This document shows, piece after piece, positions 3,489 through 21,254 of a DNA stretch of 64,000 nucleotides. Position 1 is the stretch's first letter. Each line of letters begins with the position of its first letter. The notes beneath the pieces are model-generated. The model saw only the letters and a program-made list of their open reading frames with translations. It was not told where the DNA came from and did no database searches. This DNA is from Chloroflexota bacterium (GTDB taxonomy: Bacteria > Chloroflexota > Dehalococcoidia > Tepidiformales > Tepidiformaceae), in the NCBI GenBank assembly GCA_026702615.1, contig JAPPBY010000013.1, forward strand, positions 27,521-91,520, written 5' to 3'. A program made the translations under genes and the position numbers.

Positions 3489-3943
3489 GAGCCGCGCATC
3501 GTGGCGGGCGCGCGCTCCATCCCCAGGGACTCCGGCCCCTCGATCCACTCCTCGCCGTCCGCCCACACCTCCTTCTTCCACACCGGCACCCGTCGCTTCA
3601 CTTCGTTCACGAGCCAGTGGCCCGCCTCGAACGTGGCCGCCCGGTGGCCTGCGCTCACGGCGACCAGCAGGCTCGTCTCACCGATCTCCAGCCGTCCCGT
3701 GCGGTGCAGCACGGCGCTGTCCGTCAGGTCGAAGCGCTCCAGCGCTTCCTCCGCCACCTCCCGCATCGTCTTCTCCGCCATCGAGGGATAGGCGTCATAC
3801 ACGAGGTGGTCGACCGCCCGCCCCTTGTTGGTGTTGCGAACGATTCCCAGGAACACGTCGACCGCTCCAGCTTCGTCGCGCCGAACGGCCTCGATCGCTT
3901 CCTCTGGGTTCAGACGCTCCGGCGTCACGCGGATCAGCATCAC
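3485..3943 (-). CDS. moaE: Molybdopterin synthase catalytic subunit MoaE
   Basis: 152-aa ORF with MoaE-like sequence (VDVFLGIVRN..., HRTGRLEIGETSLLVAVSAGHR, VPVWKKE), immediately downstream of moaD. Confidence 0.85.
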   Translation of the reverse strand: MMLIRVTPERLNPEEAIEAVRRDEAGAVDVFLGIVRNTNKGRAVDHLVYDAYPSMAEKTMREVAEEALERFDLTDSAVLHRTGRLEIGETSLLVAVSAGHRAATFEAGHWLVNEVKRRVPVWKKEVWADGEEWIEGPESLGMERAPATMRGS

Positions 3944-4188
3944 TAGCCTCCCGATACCGGCGGAATCAGGGCCAGTGTCGCGCCCGCCGGCACCGGCGCG
4001 TCCTCGTCGGCGTACTCTTCGTCGACTGCGTACAGCAGCGTTTCTGTGAACTCCGAGACCTGCGGATGCACTGCTATCAGCCTGTCGCGCACGGACGCCA
4101 CCGTATCCCCGGCCACGTGCGCCAGCGAAAGCTCGCGCGTGCCGACGGCATCGGCCAGTGAGGCGAAGAACAGCACCGTGATCACCAT
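3943..4188 (-). CDS. moaD: Molybdopterin synthase sulfur-carrier subunit MoaD
   Basis: Small ThiS/MoaD-like ORF ending in the C-terminal GG (LIPPVSGG). ATG at 4188 is preferred over the upstream GTG at 4218. Confidence 0.8.
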   Translation of the reverse strand: MVITVLFFASLADAVGTRELSLAHVAGDTVASVRDRLIAVHPQVSEFTETLLYAVDEEYADEDAPVPAGATLALIPPVSGG

Positions 4189-4195
4189 CGTGAGG

Positions 4196-4201
4196 ATTGT
4201 A
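4196..4201 (-). promoter_or_regulatory. TACAAT -10-like box 7 nt upstream of the moaD ATG (leaderless candidate)
   Basis: The minus strand reads gcTACAATcctcacgATG. No Shine-Dalgarno sequence. Confidence 0.3.
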
Positions 4202-4245
4202 GCGTGTAGCGCTCGCACCGCCCGACGGCGTTATCCTCCCCGCCC

Positions 4246-4947
4246 GTGGCCACCCTCCTCACCCGCGCCCTCGACCTGCTCTACCCCCCGCGCTGCGTCG
4301 GCTGCGCTGCCTTTGGCCACAACCTCTGCGAGGAGTGCGCCACGCTGCTCCTGCCCGCGAGTGGACCGGGCCGCTGCGGACGCTGTGGCGTCCGTCGCGA
4401 CGATGAGGGCCGCTGCCCGGACTGCTTCAGCTGGCGCGACCTCGACGGCGCCCGAGCCGCCTTTGAGATGACGGGAGCCGCTCGCCGGGTCGTGCACGGC
4501 CTCAAGTTCAGCGGGGTCCGCGACCTCGCGACCGACATGGCCGAAGCGCTCCACCCCGTCGTCGACGAGCTCGCCCCCGATGCCATCTTCCCCATCCCCC
4601 TCCACACCCGGCGTCGTCGCTCGCGCGGCTTCAACCAGGCCGAGGTGCTCTTCGATCGTCTCGGCTGGCCGCCCGCCCCCGGCCGCCTGGACCGCATCCG
4701 CCCCACCGCCAGCCAGGTCGGCCTGAGCGCAGCCGAGCGTCGCGAGAACGTCGCCGGAGCGTTCCGCTACCGCGGGCCCGCGCTCAAGGGCGCCACAGTC
4801 GCCGTCCTCGACGACGTTGTCACGACCGGCGCGACCGCGAGCGAGTGCGCTCGCGTCCTCCGAGAGCACGGCGCCGGCCGCGTCTACGCCCTCGCCTACG
4901 CCCGCGCCCCCTACCACTCCCCCACCTCCGGCCGCTCCGACGACTAG
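4246..4947 (+). CDS. ComF family protein (phosphoribosyltransferase-like)
   Basis: N-terminal Cys clusters (CVGC...CEEC, CGRCG...CPDC), RGFNQAE, and PRTase motif VAVLDDVVTTGATA. Confidence 0.8.
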   Translation: MATLLTRALDLLYPPRCVGCAAFGHNLCEECATLLLPASGPGRCGRCGVRRDDEGRCPDCFSWRDLDGARAAFEMTGAARRVVHGLKFSGVRDLATDMAEALHPVVDELAPDAIFPIPLHTRRRRSRGFNQAEVLFDRLGWPPAPGRLDRIRPTASQVGLSAAERRENVAGAFRYRGPALKGATVAVLDDVVTTGATASECARVLREHGAGRVYALAYARAPYHSPTSGRSDD

Positions 4948-14351: not shown

Positions 14352-15632
14352 CTAGCGGTCCGGCCCGTAGATGTAGTCGTCGATCGTCTTGTGCATGTGA
14401 CGGATGCGCCGCTCGCGGTAGTTGATGAGCAGCCCCTTGTAGGCCCGCGAGTTCATCCCCTTCTGCACGCGCGGCAGATTGTAGGAATCCTGGTCGAGGA
14501 CGAGTCCGATGGAGATCTCGCCGTGCTTGTACGTCGTGTGGGCCGGTCGCGGCGGCGGGTCCGCCCCATCCGGAATGCGCGTGTAGTTCTGCAGGTCGAA
14601 GTACATCTTGTTCGGGTCCGTCGCGTGCGGACGCTGCCGGAACACCATCACGCCTGTGTGGTGCGTGTTCAGCGTGATGCTCGGGAAGATGTAGTAGTGG
14701 TAGTCGTCCGTCATCTGGTCGTCGTTGAGCTCTGAGACGTCGATCCCGCGCGCTTCCGTGCTCTCGCGGGCCGCTGCCTGCATCATCGTGCGGACTTCTT
14801 CCGGCGCCCCGTCGAACTCATCCGGGTCGATCCCCGCCCGCACCAGCATGCCTTGCAGCGCGTCCGTGATTTCGTCCTTGTTCGGGTAACGCGGGCTCAG
14901 CAGCCCGAACGGCACCAGGTAGCGGTTGTGGCGCTCGTACAGGTCGATCTGCACGTGGATGTCGTCCAGCGACTCCAGCAGCTGCGGGTGGATACCCTGT
15001 ACGTGGTAGACCTCGTTGAAGGCGTCTACCGAGGCCTTCCAGTTTGTGTCCCACTCGATCGTCTTGTCCTGGACGATGTACATCTTCTCGAAGTGGTACG
15101 GATCGATGTGCTCCGGCAGCACGCCCAGGAACTCTTCGAGGGGCTCCGCGTCCGGGTTCATGTTGAACCAGACCCAGCCCGCCCAGGTATCGCACGGCAC
15201 TTCGACGAGCGCCGTCTCCTGGGGAACGCCCTGGGTGAAGGTGTCCTCGTCCGGGACGAACTTCTTCGAACCGTCGAGGTTGAACTCGAAGAAGTGGTAG
15301 GCGCACTGGAAGCTCTCCGCATGCCCCATGCCGGGGTTGCGGATCTGGTTCCCGCGGTGGGGACAGACGTTGTAGAAGGCGCGGACCTTGTCCTCCGCCT
15401 CCCGCACGATCAGGAACGACTCGGGACCCAGCTCGGTGGTGAAGTAGTCACCCACGTTGGGGATGTCCTGCTCCCGCCCGGCGACGTTCCACACCTTCGT
15501 CCACATGCGCTCCCACTCGAGCTCCATGAACTCCTTCGAGGTGTAGCGTTCCTTCGGGATCAGCTCCGTGCCCAGCAGAGGCTCCGGCGCCTTCTCCTGG
15601 GGGGTGCCCTTCACTCGTGCTTCAACAACCAC
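14352..15632 (-). CDS. Rieske non-heme iron oxygenase, alpha (catalytic) subunit
   Basis: Rieske motif CPHRGN...CAYHFFEF and a catalytic-domain His/Asp region (DAFNEVYHVQGIHP). GTG start is preceded by AAGGAG. No beta-subunit gene is nearby. Confidence 0.85.
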   Translation of the reverse strand: MVVEARVKGTPQEKAPEPLLGTELIPKERYTSKEFMELEWERMWTKVWNVAGREQDIPNVGDYFTTELGPESFLIVREAEDKVRAFYNVCPHRGNQIRNPGMGHAESFQCAYHFFEFNLDGSKKFVPDEDTFTQGVPQETALVEVPCDTWAGWVWFNMNPDAEPLEEFLGVLPEHIDPYHFEKMYIVQDKTIEWDTNWKASVDAFNEVYHVQGIHPQLLESLDDIHVQIDLYERHNRYLVPFGLLSPRYPNKDEITDALQGMLVRAGIDPDEFDGAPEEVRTMMQAAARESTEARGIDVSELNDDQMTDDYHYYIFPSITLNTHHTGVMVFRQRPHATDPNKMYFDLQNYTRIPDGADPPPRPAHTTYKHGEISIGLVLDQDSYNLPRVQKGMNSRAYKGLLINYRERRIRHMHKTIDDYIYGPDR

Positions 15633-15732: not shown

Positions 15733-16251
15733 CTAGTACGAACCCGGCGTGGGCACGATCTCCGTGCCCATCTCCTCCGGCTCCATCCCGAGCGTGATGA
15801 GCACCTTCGAGAGGCTCATGAAGAGCCCCACGCCCAGCGCCATCTCGACGATCTCGGGGTCGCTGAAGTGCTCCCGCAGCCGCTCCTGCACCTCGGGCGT
15901 CACCTGTCGCGGATCCCCGATGATCGCATCCGTCAGGGCGATCGCCGCCTTGTCCTTCGAGGACAGGTCCGACTCCTCGTAGCCGTCCTCAATCTCCGTT
16001 ACCTGGTCTTCGGTCAGTCCCTGCTCACGCGCCACGGCGAAGCGAACGTTCTTTCAGTAGCCGCAGTCCGTCACGCGGGCGTTTCGCATCCGCGTGACCT
16101 CCTTTGTGCGGTGGTCAAGGGCGCCCTTGCTCCAGAACGTCCCGTAGAGCATCCCGAAGGCGCCCGCCAGGCCCGGCTGGTGCGCCAGCGCCGTGCCGAA
16201 GCTGGCCTCCTCGCCCGGTATCGCCGAACTCACTCGTGGTTTGGTCGACAT
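15733..16251 (-). CDS. AhpD-like / carboxymuconolactone decarboxylase family protein with an in-frame TGA at 16054..16056 (candidate selenocysteine; otherwise a pseudogene)
   Basis: Track ORFs 16054..16362 and 15733..16035 share one frame and are separated only by a TGA plus six sense codons. The joined product reads ...RMRNARVTDCGY[TGA]KNVRFAVAREQG... and is colinear with the upstream paralog. ATG at 16251 is preceded by GGAGGA. Confidence 0.55.
16017..16047 (-). promoter_or_regulatory. Stem-loop 6 nt downstream of the in-frame UGA (SECIS-like candidate)
   Basis: mRNA GUUC-GCUU-CGC-[CGUGGC]-GCG-U-GAGC-AG-GGAC. This gives 11 bp including two G-U pairs, one bulged U, a 2-nt internal bulge, and a GU in the apical loop. 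Folded by eye only. Confidence 0.35.
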
Positions 16252-16270
16252 CGCATCCTCCTTCGGGACA

Positions 16271-16771
16271 TCAGTAGATTGGCCCCTCGCTCGAGGCCGG
16301 CATCGGCGCCTCCACCGGCGCGGGCTCCGTGCCCAGCGCCAGTCGCAAGCGGCAGTTCGCATCGAACAGCGCCACCCCGATGGTTAGCGCCACCACGCCC
16401 GACTCGCCGAAGTGCGCGTTCAGGTTCGCGTACTCCTCGTCGGTCAGGTCGTGGTGCTGCCAGGGCATCTTCTCGGCCAGCGTCAGCGCGGCTTGCTCCT
16501 GCTCGCTGAACAGGTCGCTGCCCGCCCAGTCCGCGAGCGCCTCGACCTGCGCGTCCCTCACGCCGGATTCGGCGTGGCGAACGGCCAGCTCAGCCTCGCA
16601 GTCGTGCAACTGCGCGACCCGCAACCGGCACAGCTCGAGCAGGCTCGCGGGCAGCAGCTCCTCATCCCAGAGCTTCCCGTAGAAGGCCGCGTACAGATCG
16701 CGCAACTCGGGCCGCAGGCCCAGAGCCGCATCGAACGGCGCGCTTCCCTCTGCCCCTTCGAGCCAGGTCAT
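16271..16771 (-). CDS. Carboxymuconolactone decarboxylase (AhpD-like) family protein
   Basis: LLELCRLRVAQLHDCEAELAVRH aligns with the CxxC region of the family; here the motif reads C-E-A-E. Start taken at MTWLEG; a TTG at 16807 is an alternative. Confidence 0.7.
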   Translation of the reverse strand: MTWLEGAEGSAPFDAALGLRPELRDLYAAFYGKLWDEELLPASLLELCRLRVAQLHDCEAELAVRHAESGVRDAQVEALADWAGSDLFSEQEQAALTLAEKMPWQHHDLTDEEYANLNAHFGESGVVALTIGVALFDANCRLRLALGTEPAPVEAPMPASSEGPIY

Positions 16772-16819: not shown

Positions 16820-17338
16820 TCAGGTCGCCGCCACCTGCGGGATTCGCACCCGTCCCAGCCGCTGCGCGACCTCGGTGATCCCTACCGCGAAGGTCGCCGG
16901 GATCAGCTCGCCCCGCTCGATTGCCGCGATGAACATCGGCAGGATCGTCAGCAGCACGCGGATTCGCACCGACTCGCGCGCGTGCCACTCCTCCGACACC
17001 CGCCCCTCGGCCACCATCTCTTCGAGGTCCTTCGGCAGGTAGACCCCGCCCCGGCGCGCGTACGCCATCGTCGCGACGACCGCCATCGCCCGTGGGTCCA
17101 AATCCGTGCGGTGGAAGCCGGCGCTCTGGCTGGCCGGGAACCGCTGGATCGCTCCCTGGACGTTCTGGTGCAGCGCCTCCGCCTCCACGGCCGCCCCTGC
17201 GATGGCCCCTTCCGGGTCCTCCAGCTCCGACGTCAGCAGCGCGCCCCCCGCCAGCTCCGCCTCCGCCGCAGCCGTCACGTCCTCAATGCTGGCCCCCTCC
17301 GCGGAGAGGGACTTCAGGTGGTCGATCAGCGCGCCCAT
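16820..17338 (-). CDS. Hypothetical protein (172 aa), co-directional between lpd and the AhpD-like pair
   Basis: An ORF with a non-repetitive, protein-like sequence that fills the gap in a co-directional operon. I recognise no motif. Confidence 0.5.
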   Translation of the reverse strand: MGALIDHLKSLSAEGASIEDVTAAAEAELAGGALLTSELEDPEGAIAGAAVEAEALHQNVQGAIQRFPASQSAGFHRTDLDPRAMAVVATMAYARRGGVYLPKDLEEMVAEGRVSEEWHARESVRIRVLLTILPMFIAAIERGELIPATFAVGITEVAQRLGRVRIPQVAAT

Positions 17339-18816: not shown

Positions 18817-20205
18817 CTAGACCAGCAGCCGGAACGGCGCTTCGAGGTAGTCGCGCACCGACGCCAGGAACTGCGCCGCCGGCGCCCCGTCGAGCGCGCG
18901 GTGGTCCCAGGTCAAGCTCAGCGTCATCGCCTTCTGCCGCACGGGACGCTCCCCCTCCCAGCGCACGTCGTCGCGCAGGCGGTTCACCCCGAGGATGCCC
19001 ACCTCGGGCGGGTTGAGGATGGGCGTGAACGAGTCCACCCCGAACATGCCCAGCGTCGACACGGTAAACGTGCCGCCGGCCATGTCGTCGAGCCCGAGCT
19101 TCCCTTCGCGCGCCAGCCCCGCAAGCCGCGAGGACTCGAGCGCGATCTCCTTCAGCCCGAGCTGGTCGACGTGCCGTACTACGGGCACGACCAGCCCCTC
19201 GTCGAGCGCTACCGCCATGCCCACATGCACCTCGCCCCGCAGGTTCATTTCCGTGCCGAGGAACTGCGCGTTCATGCGCGGGTGGTCTAGCAGGGCCTTG
19301 GCCGCCGCCTTCATCACGATGTCGGTGTAGGAGGGGCGCACGCTGTCGCCTGCCCACTCCTCGATCAGCTGGCTGCGCAGCTTCACGCAGTCGTCCATGG
19401 CCACGTCCATGTCCATGGTCAGCTGCGCCGTCTCCTGCAGGCTCGCGTACATGCGCTCGGCGATGACCTTGCGCATGCCTCGCACGGCCATTACCTCGTC
19501 TTCGTGTGCCGCTGCTGGAACGGCGGGAGCCGCTGCCGGAGCAGCCGCGGGCGCGCCACCCGCTGCCGCCGCCTCAACGTCTTCTCTTGTGATACGCCCG
19601 CCGGGGCCGGTCCCCGCTACCGTCGACAGGTCGATGCCCAGCGCCTCCGCTCGTTTCCGTGCCAGCGGCGAGGCCGGCGCCGGGGCGCCCGCCGGAGCAG
19701 CTGCGGGCGCGGCTGCTGCCGCTTCGTGTGCGGTGCGCACGTCGTCTTCGGTCACGCGCCCGCGCGGTCCTGTTGCCGTAACAGTGGCGAGGTCCACGCC
19801 AAGCTCTTTCGCAAGCCGCCGCGCGGCCGGCGAGGCCGGCACACGCTCGCCCTCGGCTCGCGCCGGTGCGGCCGGAGCTGCGGCTGTCGCAGCTGCCGGC
19901 TCTGCTGCTGCGGGAGCGGCGTCCGCCGCTGGCGCGCCGCCTCCCGGCAGCACATCCGGAATCTCTTCGTCGGCGGCGTAGATCCACCCCACGACCGCTC
20001 CCGGATCGACGGTGGCCTCGGCCGGCACCAGGTGACGCACGATGCCCGCGGCTTCCGCCTCGACCTCCATCTCGACCTTCTCGGTCTCGAGCCGGTAGAG
20101 GTCCTCGCCGAGCTTCACCTCGCCGCCGTCGGGGATGTGCCACTCGGCTACGGTTCCCTCCGTCATGGTCATGCCGAGCTTCATCATGTAAATCTCGGTT
20201 GGCAT
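18817..20205 (-). CDS. Dihydrolipoamide acyltransferase (E2) with one lipoyl domain and two peripheral-subunit-binding domains
   Basis: Lipoyl motif LETEKVEMEV. Two PSBD-like segments (SPAARRLAKELGVDLATVTATGPRGRVTEDDV and SPLARKRAEALGIDLSTVAGTGPGGRITREDV). Catalytic DHRALDGA. Confidence 0.9.
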   Translation of the reverse strand: MPTEIYMMKLGMTMTEGTVAEWHIPDGGEVKLGEDLYRLETEKVEMEVEAEAAGIVRHLVPAEATVDPGAVVGWIYAADEEIPDVLPGGGAPAADAAPAAAEPAAATAAAPAAPARAEGERVPASPAARRLAKELGVDLATVTATGPRGRVTEDDVRTAHEAAAAAPAAAPAGAPAPASPLARKRAEALGIDLSTVAGTGPGGRITREDVEAAAAGGAPAAAPAAAPAVPAAAHEDEVMAVRGMRKVIAERMYASLQETAQLTMDMDVAMDDCVKLRSQLIEEWAGDSVRPSYTDIVMKAAAKALLDHPRMNAQFLGTEMNLRGEVHVGMAVALDEGLVVPVVRHVDQLGLKEIALESSRLAGLAREGKLGLDDMAGGTFTVSTLGMFGVDSFTPILNPPEVGILGVNRLRDDVRWEGERPVRQKAMTLSLTWDHRALDGAPAAQFLASVRDYLEAPFRLLV

Positions 20206-20206
20206 C

Positions 20207-21254
20207 TCATCCCCCGTCCTGTTGGAGTTGCTGTTCCTCTGGCGAGCCGCCGGCTGCCTCGTCGTTGCGATACAAACCCACGCACGCTGCGTACTCCAGC
20301 GTCGCGTGGACGTCGATGACCCAGGGACCATCCCGGGCTACTCGGAGTGTAGCCGCTTGCCCCGGTTTCAACACACGCTCGCGTTCGCCGTCGAACGCGA
20401 GCACCCCCGGTCCCGCCACGGTGACCGGTTCCCCGAGCGGGAGTCGTGCGTGTGAACGCACGGCGATGGGCTCGTACAGCCCCGGCGCGATCGGCGCGAG
20501 CAGGGAGACGCCCCCCTCGCCGGGTCCGAGCGTCAGGTGCAGCGCCTCGTCCTCGTCCGGCGTCAGCGGCGCCAGCAAGCCCCCGATGGAGGTGATCCCC
20601 ACCGCAGACGGCTCCGCCCTTGTGACGACTGCCTCGCGCAGGCGCTGTCCGCCCCAGATCGCGCGTGATCCAACGAACCGGTCTGCCGCCAGCACGGCAT
20701 CGACGAGGGCGATGTCGTCTCGTTCGCCCTCGATCTCGACGTGCACGGCCTTCACCTGTCTCGCGACCCGCTCCAGCGGCACCCGGCCGCTCGCCACGAG
20801 CCCCGCTGCCGAGCCCGCCACCGTCGCCTCGACCATCGTCGGGAAGACGTTGTTCGTGCCCGTCGAGACGGGCACGAGGGGCGCGTCCCGCCAGCCGAGC
20901 GCGAAAGCCCGGTTCGTGCCGTCGCCACCGAGCGTGATGACCGCTCCGCAACCCTCTGCCCGCAGCGATTCCGCCGCGCGGATGGTGTCGAGCGTACTCG
21001 CGGTGTGCGTCGCCTCCACGGCGACGAAGGTGGCCTCGTCGCCGAACTCCTCGGCCGCCGCCGCCGTAATGCCGTGCGTGTCGGGCATGTACCGGAAATC
21101 GCGCACACCACTCGCGAGCGCGCCCACGATGGCGCGCCGCACGATCGCGCGCTTCTCCTGGTTGTCGAAGACCGACGCGCGCGCAACGAGGCGGCGGATG
21201 TCCTTCCCCGAAGCGGGGTTCGCGGCGATCCCGAGCGGGAGTGAGCTGGTCAGG
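20207..21254 (-). CDS. ATP-NAD kinase-like (AcoX-type) protein; start codon unresolved
   Basis: GGDGT motif (VITLGGDGTN). The first canonical start is GTG at 21142, but a family-like N-terminus (LGIAANPASGKDIRRLVARASVFDNQEKRAIV) lies upstream with only CTG/ATC codons, in frame with the E1beta stop. The stop is 1 nt from the E2 ATG. Confidence 0.6.

Follow-up and report, generated by a model that had tools for sequence, protein, structure and literature searches.

A minus-strand locus in a sponge-associated Chloroflexota bacterium (Tepidiformaceae lineage) raises the question of whether an in-frame TGA separates two short genes or encodes selenocysteine (Sec) within a single one. In the window, that is, the whole 64-kb stretch of DNA that was analysed, the minus-strand ORFs 16362..16054 and 16035..15733 occupy one frame, and the gap between them consists of TGA 16056..16054 and six sense codons (AAG AAC GTT CGC TTC GCC). 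The ORF geometry on which the original prediction was built is therefore correct. Joining the two ORFs from ATG 16251, which follows an AGGAGG Shine–Dalgarno sequence at 16262..16257, does give the proposed 172-codon frame: 519 nt with 171 sense codons, the TGA as codon 66 and a TAG stop (Table 1). This TGA, three residues past Cys63 in the motif TDCGY[TGA]KNVRF, is the only interruption of the frame. The paralogue encoded upstream (16771..16271) was also claimed to be colinear with the joined product, and it is, with its LHDCEAELAVRH in register with TDCGY[TGA]KNVRF. When the complete window was searched for in-frame TGAs flanked on each side by coding-type GC3, four matches were returned, among them the AhpD-like gene. 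The in-frame TGA of this gene stands out beyond chance because the other three are ordinary stops that separate neighbouring genes in the same frame. No second selenoprotein candidate was found within the 64-kb window.

Table 1. Features of the AhpD-like locus and its upstream neighbours, in window coordinates.
Feature	Position	Strand	Details
AhpD-like selenoprotein CDS	15733..16251	minus	172 residues including predicted Sec66; TAG stop 15735..15733
Candidate SECIS hairpin	16023..16047	minus	+7..+31 after UGA; -8.3 kcal/mol, 87% of ensemble
UGA codon 66	16054..16056	minus	second position of C63-G-Y-U66 redox motif (U66 predicted)
Shine–Dalgarno AGGAGG	16257..16262	minus	5 nt before ATG 16251; direct sequence reading
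Upstream AhpD/CMD paralogue, 166 aa	16271..16771	minus	PF02627 34 bits; degenerate E-x11-C-E-A-E (CxxE)
172-aa unknown ORF	16820..17338	minus	between E2/E3 genes and AhpD pair
Dihydrolipoyl dehydrogenase	17408..about 18805	minus	TIGR01350 553 bits vs cut-off 409
Lipoyl-bearing E2 acyltransferase, PDH-type complex	18817..20205	minus	PF00364, PF02817, PF00198

The TGA was proposed to occupy the position of the second redox cysteine of a CxxC motif, and comparison with homologues showed Cys at exactly that column. Orthologues are colinear with the window protein over its full length, and the codon 66 column is TGA in 77 fetched loci and TGC in 21 others. Full-length Cys homologues read TDCG[FY]CK[NR]VRF at the motif, and in all 47 of them C63, C66, E51 and R70 are invariant. 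The TGA loci come from marine, freshwater and other metagenomes, and TGA-bearing homologues reach down to 44% protein identity. All 27 Tepidiformaceae-type sequences, which represent 27 species-level Tepidiformaceae/Dehalococcoidia genomes, carry the TGA. We read this codon, with near certainty, as a conserved site of selenocysteine insertion within the redox centre of a small AhpD-like protein.

A stem-loop starting 6 nt after the UGA, which had been noted in the original prediction, is present, and synonymous sites are frozen over the same stretch. The candidate hairpin, GUUCGC-UU-CGC[CGUG]GCG-C-GUGAGC, has a CGUG apical loop (16036..16033) that begins 17 nt past the UGA and places G19 and U20 at 16035 and 16034. 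Synonymous entropy is lower over codons 67–76, which include GTT and CGT, both rare in this 69% G+C genome, than over any other 10-codon window (0.023 versus a gene mean of 0.537), a minimum reached in 5 of 20000 permutations. Across two sequence classes, positions +10..+17, G19, U20 and +22..+24 are invariant, with variation at loop positions 18 and 21. Among sequences of the window's class the upper stem is constant and there is almost no covariation, as the hairpin hardly varies; the lower stem is kept in Tepidiformaceae and is broken or in another register in more distant relatives. Clean compensation is limited to the marine group, whose hairpin has two pairs that compensate perfectly at synonymous sites (CG 18/UA 5; UA 12/CG 11); the corresponding score was reached by 0 of 500 shuffles. 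In this G+C-rich sequence, folding energy was no better than that of dinucleotide shuffles (z = -0.35 for 25 nt, +0.58 for 40 nt and +2.19 for 78 nt), and it was left out as evidence for the hairpin.

[quoted passage not shown] The candidate lies within these limits, with a 4-nt loop, G followed by U, a spacing of 17 nt and -8.3 kcal/mol. It shares with the Escherichia coli fdhF SECIS and the bacterial consensus an in-CDS hairpin right after the UGA, a small apical loop with G then U, and an internal loop or bulge beneath a short upper stem, and a related group (L094–L100) has an fdhF-like GGUC loop at the equivalent position. It differs from both in its upper stem, where 3 bp (CGC/GCG) precede the 2×1 internal loop and the 6 bp below it, and it may thereby fall short of the bSECIS upper-stem rule of 4–16 bp. 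The sequence likeness stops at GU, and Rfam returned no SECIS or other RNA family, either over the whole window at gathering thresholds or in the local region at E values up to 10; the SelB site is a predicted one. A second CGUG at +25..+28 of the window corresponds to the apical loop in the marine group, and the exact SelB contact is ambiguous between the two CGUG sequences. An alternative hairpin centred on the second CGUG is a less likely candidate and was rejected as the main model, being much weaker and leaving the frozen positions +7..+16 unexplained.

Several explanations that do not involve Sec have to be weighed against these data. One base separates TGC or TGT from TGA, and the first reading had a single sequence to go on, so a nonsense mutation in a decaying pseudogene or a base-call error had to be considered at the outset. 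This explanation is already refuted, and we assign it a negligible probability. A base-call error is incompatible with the same TGA in 77 independently assembled loci that span 44–99% protein identity, and with an identical C-terminal fragment encoded in at least six separate metagenome assemblies. A pseudogene is excluded by dN/dS values of 0.110 for codons 1–65 and 0.126 for codons 67–169, which indicate strong purifying selection on both sides of the TGA; no extra stops or frameshifts were found in any fetched orthologue. Termination at the UGA, with a 65-residue N-terminal piece and a separate 100-residue piece restarted at GTG 16035, is how the locus is read by public gene callers, which place two genes (65 aa and 100 aa) in every public assembly examined. 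The named fragments are labelled 'hypothetical protein' or carry a generic alkylhydroperoxidase-family label, and many database entries consist of a 99–112-aa fragment. In the window's sequence class a GTG does lie seven codons past the TGA. The Sec machinery was not found in the DNA analysed: SelA, SelB and SelD motifs had no match in the 64-kb window or in 103 fetched loci, the window contains no tRNA, and ARAGORN detected no tRNA-Sec in the 103 loci. Two polypeptides are nevertheless highly improbable, since the six codons that lead from the TGA up to the nearest possible restart are clearly translated, their amino acids being kept through synonymous codon changes. All 62 unique sequences have Arg at codon +4, encoded by CGC, AGA, CGA, AGG or CGT, and codon +5 is Phe, written TTC or TTT. 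Marine-group sequences have Ala or Ser at codon +7 and so lack the GTG restart codon, yet they keep the TGA and both halves. The break would also cut the conserved active-site helix pair of one compact domain, and the TGA falls exactly on an invariant catalytic Cys.

The UGA could alternatively be read through with a residue other than Sec, either Cys from a tRNA(Sec)-like tRNA or Trp/Cys inserted by near-cognate suppression. Some bacteria have been proposed to possess tRNA(Sec)-like tRNAs that bring in other residues. Cys is functional at this column in many homologues, and the identity of residue 66 is deduced here from sequence, not chemically. If Cys were inserted, the cheap change from TGA to TGC or TGT would be expected in some of the 27 Tepidiformaceae-type species, but none of them has made it. 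A conserved downstream RNA element at SECIS distance is, moreover, a hallmark of SelB-dependent decoding, neighbouring genes use TGA as an ordinary stop, and the family is catalogued as Sec/Cys (PMC2398784, PMC13188914), all of which makes read-through with another residue very unlikely. The locus is very probably one gene for a 172-residue protein of the AhpD/carboxymuconolactone-decarboxylase (CMD) fold, in which UGA codon 66 is recoded to selenocysteine.

The assignment to this fold is based on several comparisons. PF02627 (CMD) matches residues 33–107, spanning the TGA, with 37.5 bits against a gathering cut-off of 23, and a sequence search of the PDB retrieved Pseudomonas aeruginosa PA0269 at E = 2e-11, with CAYC aligned to CGY[U]. 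The Cys homologue P0001 (68% identity) was modelled with AlphaFold as a stand-in for the window protein; the model has a pLDDT of 93 and matches Atu0492, PA0269, Mlr4105 and Deinococcus radiodurans AhpD at TM 0.6–0.83 (structures 2GMY, 2IJC, 2O4D, 3C1L, 2PRR and 6K40). As judged from this model, the window protein has the all-helical AhpD/CMD fold. The best solved relatives are PA0269 and Atu0492 (PDB 2IJC, 2O4D, 7XW1, 2GMY), with a fold TM of 0.79–0.83; Glu-x11-Cys-x-Tyr-Cys of their active-site helix pair aligns with E51, C63, Y65 and U66. PA0269 forms a hexamer and reduces H2O2 weakly (PMC3141380). The window protein differs from these relatives in about 30 extra N-terminal residues, in the pairing of its gene with a CxxE paralogue, and in the active site itself, where Sec is predicted in place of Cys51 and Arg70 stands in place of His55. 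This histidine, which was called invariant among the structures compared in PMC3141380, is the last element of the AhpD proton relay Glu-x11-Cys-x-x-Cys-x3-His (PMC3141380). The relay is incomplete here, with Glu51, Cys63, Tyr65 and Sec66 at the active site and Arg at the His position throughout the subfamily, including all 47 Cys homologues; peroxidase chemistry is therefore not simply transferable to this protein.

The view that AhpD-like proteins are a described bacterial Sec/Cys family is well founded in the literature. CxxU members were reported from the Sargasso Sea by Zhang, Fomenko and Gladyshev in 2005 (PMC1088965), the GOS study lists 'AhpD-like 1' (COG2128) and 'AhpD-like 2' (pfam02627; PMC2398784, Table 2), and a 2026 review distinguishes an 'AhpD-like protein' (TIGR01926) from a 'CMD-like protein' (PF02627; PMC13188914). 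The window protein shares with these families the PF02627 domain, Sec at the second CxxC position, many Cys homologues, a hairpin with a small G-containing apical loop just past the UGA, and abundance in marine metagenomes; it differs in its origin from sponge Tepidiformaceae and in the Arg that replaces the relay His. It scores 41.1 bits with TIGR01926 ('peroxidase-related enzyme'), under the curated cut-off of 81.8, and far under the cut-offs of the other '(seleno)protein' AhpD models NF053654, NF041047, NF041238 and TIGR04169. We therefore regard it as a member of a sister subfamily that is set apart by these model scores.

The paralogue gene sits 19 nt upstream of the selenoprotein gene. 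Every Tepidiformaceae locus has a paralogue directly upstream, as do most distant Sec-type loci (26–53% identity to the window's paralogue), and this adjacency is kept from sponge Chloroflexota to open-ocean bacteria. The degenerate motif C[EDA][AS]E is conserved in Tepidiformaceae-type and several more distant loci; it had no match in marine-group paralogues. Further upstream, the E2 and dihydrolipoyl dehydrogenase genes keep their place in every Tepidiformaceae locus, but the short flanks fetched around more distant Sec-type genes do not contain them. In mycobacteria, E2 and dihydrolipoyl dehydrogenase form the electron route of the AhpD peroxidase system, as reportedly described by Bryk and colleagues in 2002. 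The position of the window pair directly downstream of a lipoyl-carrier E2 and dihydrolipoyl dehydrogenase recalls this Mycobacterium tuberculosis AhpC-AhpD-DlaT-Lpd system, and the redox centre of M. tuberculosis AhpD, also of CxxC type, sits on the same pair of helices (active site: PMC3141380). Its Foldseek match is, in contrast, remote (E > 1), its chain topology is unlike that of the window protein, and no ahpC/peroxiredoxin motif was seen within the window. The E2/dihydrolipoyl dehydrogenase genes may be functionally linked to the AhpD pair, but an adjacency confined to one family of related genomes may also reflect shared history and not function. Coupling to a downstream Rieske oxygenase was also considered and is weakened by at least eight related genomes that keep the AhpD pair while the alpha gene is missing or a remnant.

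A mechanism can be proposed by analogy with the established bacterial pathway, where SelB carrying Sec-tRNA(Sec) would bind the hairpin that starts 6 nt past the UGA and, competing with RF2, supply the ribosome with Sec. The resulting C63-x-x-U66 centre would be carried on the conserved helix-turn-helix of AhpD-like proteins, with Glu51 and Tyr65 at proton-relay positions known from PA0269 and Arg70 at the His position of that family. The protein would most likely act as a small oxidoreductase that cycles between the selenol/thiol and selenenylsulfide forms, either as a hydroperoxide reductase or as the reductant of a peroxiredoxin-type partner. It probably acts together with the co-transcribed CxxE paralogue, because AhpD-like proteins are oligomers. 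Reducing equivalents could possibly be drawn from the dihydrolipoamide of the adjacent E2/E3, as in M. tuberculosis AhpD-DlaT-Lpd.

A bolder proposal, which we consider unlikely, is that the Sec protein assembles with its CxxE paralogue into a heteromer that is a dedicated selenol oxidoreductase, with Arg-for-His chemistry unlike that of classical AhpD. Such a complex could serve as a lipoamide-driven (E2/E3-coupled) hydroperoxide or disulfide reductase, or as a reductive dehalogenase resembling Bmp8 or a deiodinase in organohalide-rich sponges. Sponges are rich in organobromines, and the window bacteria live in sponges. The reductive debrominase Bmp8 (PDB 6OHI, 6OHJ), itself a marine thiol-based enzyme, belongs to the CMD fold family and was matched at a sequence E value of 0.016 and a Foldseek E value of 3e-4 (TM about 0.6). 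This match is weak, and AhpD-like CxxC proteins are far more similar to the window protein. Open-ocean and freshwater metagenomes, in addition, commonly contain the Sec subfamily, and no halogenation genes were found near the window gene.

The window gene is a real and unannotated member of a known selenoprotein family. The biological novelty of this is small, since CxxU AhpD-like selenoproteins have been known since 2005; possibly new are the conserved pairing of the gene with a CxxE paralogue whose redox motif is degenerate, the Arg that invariably takes the position of the relay His, and the site directly behind lipoamide-handling E2/E3 genes. Some of the richest bacterial selenoproteomes belong to Dehalococcoidia MAGs (PMC13326102), and our literature search found no paper tying Tepidiformaceae or sponge Chloroflexota to selenoproteins. 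For annotation the finding matters more directly, because gene callers still split a gene that is kept in at least 27 Tepidiformaceae/Dehalococcoidia species and in many lineages from marine and freshwater habitats. Once annotated correctly, the gene would add one more selenoenzyme to the redox inventory of these abundant sponge symbionts and would imply that they need selenium.

Apart from a TGA at codon 66 (16056..16054), the 173-codon frame of the minus-strand AhpD-like gene is uninterrupted, and an AGGAGG motif lies 5 nt upstream of its ATG. The residues RMRNARVTDCGY precede the TGA and KNVRFAVAREQGL follow it, and the joined frame matches PF02627 (CMD/AhpD) with 37.5 bits (cut-off 23) over residues 33–107, a stretch that spans the TGA. 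The original prediction had joined two ORFs of one frame (16362..16054 and 16035..15733), separated by the TGA and six sense codons, and had noted a colinear paralogue immediately upstream; this observation is borne out in every detail. In a window-wide scan considering coding-type base composition on both sides, codon 66 was the only in-frame TGA that is not a mere stop between same-frame genes.

Coordinates of the predicted selenoprotein gene, its RNA element and neighbouring genes within the window
Feature	Position	Strand	Description
Predicted selenoprotein gene	16251..15733	minus	One frame from ATG, TGA at codon 66, TAG end
Candidate SECIS hairpin	16047..16023 (+7..+31 after the UGA)	minus	GUUCGC-UU-CGC[CGUG]GCG-C-GUGAGC, -8.3 kcal/mol, 87% of ensemble
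AhpD/CMD paralogue	16771..16271	minus	PF02627, 34 bits; reads ...RLRVAQLHDCEAELAVRH... in register with the selenoprotein
172-aa ORF	16820..17338	minus	No Pfam/NCBIfam match; flanked by the gene for dihydrolipoyl dehydrogenase and the AhpD pair
NAD-kinase/diacylglycerol-kinase-like ORF	20207..21142	minus	311 aa, PF01513; inserted in the PDH-type cluster, with E1 beta on one side and E2 on the other
Rieske oxygenase alpha subunit	14352..15632	minus	GbcA (glycine betaine monooxygenase oxygenase subunit) weakly closest, 129 bits, cut-off 670

Relatives retrieved by protein search were of two kinds: full-length proteins of 170–180 aa, which are at most 68% identical and carry Cys at the TGA column (TDCG[FY]CK[NR]VRF), and C-terminal fragments of 99–112 aa, the only form in which the nearest relatives (66–95% identical) are present, as expected if gene callers halt at a conserved TGA. 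Among species-representative genomes, all 27 loci of the window type have TGA at codon 66 with uninterrupted coding on both sides; these are labelled as Tepidiformaceae, Dehalococcoidia or Chloroflexota MAGs, plus one "uncultured Anaerolineaceae" record, and include many complete chromosomes and several genomes from sponges. Two Acidimicrobiia homologues have TGC at this column. Scanning metagenomes yielded a further 50 loci with TGA, the most distant at 44% identity, together with more TGC forms (77 TGA and 21 TGC across the fetched loci). Alignment with 47 full-length Cys homologues, proposed with the original prediction as a check, placed an invariant Cys opposite the TGA, with E51, C63 and R70 likewise invariant. 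At least six separate assemblies encode the identical C-terminal fragment, and in all of them the locus is called as 65-aa and 100-aa genes. The same split was seen in the gene calls of every assembly viewed (loci L104–L109; database proteins P0021, P0033, P0057, P0058, P0060 and P0062), and the fragment carries the NCBI name "hypothetical protein", as does CL897_06180 from a Dehalococcoidia MAG.

This conservation of the TGA across loci and assemblies, together with the invariant Cys column, rules out both a miscalled base and a nonsense mutation private to this genome. Alternatively, the locus could yield two separate products, with translation stopping at the UGA and restarting at a GTG beyond the next six codons. 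This is unlikely, because the six intervening codons are selected at the amino-acid level and keep their residues despite synonymous change: codon +4 after the UGA is Arg in 62/62 unique TGA-bearing sequences (CGC, AGA, CGA, AGG or CGT) and codon +5 is Phe in all 62 (TTC or TTT). Moreover, codon +7 is Ala or Ser in the marine group of distant TGA-bearing sequences, which hence have no restart codon, and a split would interrupt the pair of active-site helices in what is one compact domain. Calculated over the window gene together with 26 orthologues, dN/dS is 0.110 over codons 1–65 and 0.126 over codons 67–169.

In the same set, codons 63–76 show nearly no synonymous change, and codons 67–76 (AAG AAC GTT CGC TTC GCC GTG GCG CGT GAG) are essentially invariant, including GTT and CGT, which are unusual codons in this 69% G+C genome. 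No other stretch of ten codons in the gene varies so little (mean synonymous entropy 0.023 versus 0.537), and shuffling the per-codon values gave an equally low window in 5 of 20000 trials. The synonymous freeze coincides with the hairpin, the stem-loop that had been noted after the UGA. The bacterial SECIS consensus has a loop 16–37 nt from the UGA, an MFE of at most -7.5 kcal/mol and an upper stem of 4–16 bp (PMC13188914, Fig. 2 legend); the hairpin fits most of this, with a 4-nt apical loop that has G at the second position and then U, a UGA-to-loop spacing of 17 nt and an MFE within the limit. Its upper stem of 3 bp, followed by a 2x1 internal loop and 6 pairs, is borderline on the 4–16 bp clause. 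At the same position, a divergent group (L094–L100) forms a stem of 7 bp capped by GGUC, which is the loop sequence of E. coli fdhF. Positions +10..+17, G19, U20 and +22..+24 are invariant across the window group and L094–L100, and the flanking loop positions 18 and 21 vary.

The marine-group hairpin sits 7 nt further downstream, and two of its pairs, both involving synonymous third positions, show perfect covariation (CG 18/UA 5; UA 12/CG 11) with none broken; 0 of 500 shuffles reached the covariation score. Within the window hairpin's own group there is little covariation, its energy is no better than that of dinucleotide shuffles (z = -0.35, +0.58 and +2.19 for 25, 40 and 78 nt), and no Rfam model matches the element. 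The apical loop of the marine group is formed by a second CGUG, at +25..+28, which Sec forms conserve strongly and Cys forms do not, so SelB might contact either CGUG of the putative SECIS. At codons +8 to +10 (16024..16032) and the matching columns of L001–L100, Ala-Arg at +8 and +9 is nearly universal in TGA-bearing genes, and the Arg is spelled CGT in 45 of 51 unique TGA-bearing sequences, giving the CGUG at +25..+28; these columns are not conserved in the TGC forms. This pattern suggests that the SECIS itself limits which residues the protein can carry at codons +8 and +9.

AhpD-like proteins are indeed a described Sec/Cys family, as the original prediction stated. The Sargasso Sea study reported AhpD-like CxxU selenoproteins (27 sequences) and a "CMD domain-containing protein" with CXXU (PMC1088965), and the GOS study listed "AhpD-like 1" (COG2128; 299 Sec forms, 902 Cys homologues) and "AhpD-like 2" (pfam02627; 70 and 207; PMC2398784, Table 2). 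Such CxxU proteins also appear in a 2026 review and in BSepDB (PMC13188914, PMC13326102), where Dehalococcoidia MAGs are among the ten richest bacterial selenoproteomes (PMC13326102). The window gene would work alike and shares the Pfam family, but it reaches neither the TIGR01926 cut-off nor that of any curated NCBIfam "(seleno)protein" AhpD model; on these scores it is better treated as an additional subfamily or member than as a curated equivalog. Among the papers searched, none tied Tepidiformaceae or sponge Chloroflexota to selenoproteins. The 64-kb window contains no tRNA and no sel genes, and neither tRNA-Sec nor sel genes were found in 103 fetched loci.

The closest solved structures by sequence are P. 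aeruginosa PA0269 (2IJC, 2O4D, 7XW1; E about 2e-11), whose CAYC aligns to CGY[U] of the selenoprotein, and A. tumefaciens Atu0492 (2GMY). The Cys homologue P0001 (68% identical) was modelled with AlphaFold in place of the window protein (pLDDT 93.1, pTM 0.88), and this model matches Atu0492, PA0269, Mlr4105, 2PRR and D. radiodurans AhpD with TM 0.6–0.83. The proton relay of PA0269 comprises Glu36, Cys48, Tyr50, Cys51 and His55 (PMC3141380); the first four correspond to Glu51, Cys63, Tyr65 and the predicted Sec66, whereas the His55 position is taken by Arg70, which is invariant in the subfamily. Judged from the alignment, this His-to-Arg change sets the subfamily genuinely apart from the classical AhpD signature.

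The paralogue retains E-x11-C, and in Tepidiformaceae-type loci and several more distant ones its second redox position is occupied by Glu (C[EDA][AS]E); marine-group paralogues do not match this pattern. The redox-degenerate E-x11-C-x-x-E appears as CEAE, CESE or CDAE. Most of the distant loci with TGA also keep the paralogue directly 5' of the CxxU gene, often a few nucleotides away, and this persistent adjacency suggests an obligate two-subunit unit. The arrangement is seen in L001–L025, L028–L029, L032–L043 and many other loci, from sponge Chloroflexota to distant marine lineages.

Closely spaced genes on the minus strand surround the pair, in the transcription order PDH-type E1 alpha, E1 beta, NAD-kinase-like ORF, E2 (lipoyl and E3-binding domains), dihydrolipoyl dehydrogenase (Lpd; TIGR01350, 553 bits), 172-aa ORF, CxxE paralogue, selenoprotein gene, Rieske oxygenase alpha subunit, Rieske ferredoxin and CoA-transferase. 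The order from E2 to the selenoprotein gene is conserved in all Tepidiformaceae-type loci; E2/Lpd were not seen in the short flanks of distant TGA-bearing loci. The 172-aa ORF is 76–100% identical and in the same place in all Tepidiformaceae-type loci, and the NAD-kinase-like gene is called at the equivalent place in independent assemblies (L104, L105). At least eight related genomes with the AhpD pair lack the Rieske alpha gene or have a remnant of it, which argues against an obligatory link between the two. In L010, L011, L014, L015, L016, L018, L021 and L022 (positions about 3600–4500) it is missing or reduced to about 30–185 codons, and the Rieske ferredoxin gene and AhpD pair are retained where it is lost.

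A mechanism is proposed in which SelB with Sec-tRNA(Sec) would bind the hairpin and insert Sec at UGA 66, as is established for bacteria in general. Fold and motif are consistent with a small AhpD-type oxidoreductase whose C63-x-x-U66 centre would cycle between selenol/thiol and selenenylsulfide, reducing hydroperoxides or re-reducing a peroxiredoxin-like partner. More speculatively, electrons could come from dihydrolipoamide on the neighbouring E2/E3, given the lineage-restricted synteny and the precedent of M. tuberculosis AhpD-DlaT-Lpd. The conserved adjacency suggests that the selenoprotein may act jointly with the CxxE paralogue; because AhpD-like proteins form trimers or hexamers (PMC3141380), a hetero-oligomer of the two is plausible.

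With a conserved UGA at the Cys column, coding selection on both sides of it and a hairpin after the UGA, the selenoprotein interpretation holds: the window gene is very probably a genuine, unannotated selenoprotein gene of a long-known family, with Sec predicted at residue 66. What it would add to that family is modest: the CxxE partner conserved beside it, Arg in place of the relay His, and the nearby E2/E3 genes.
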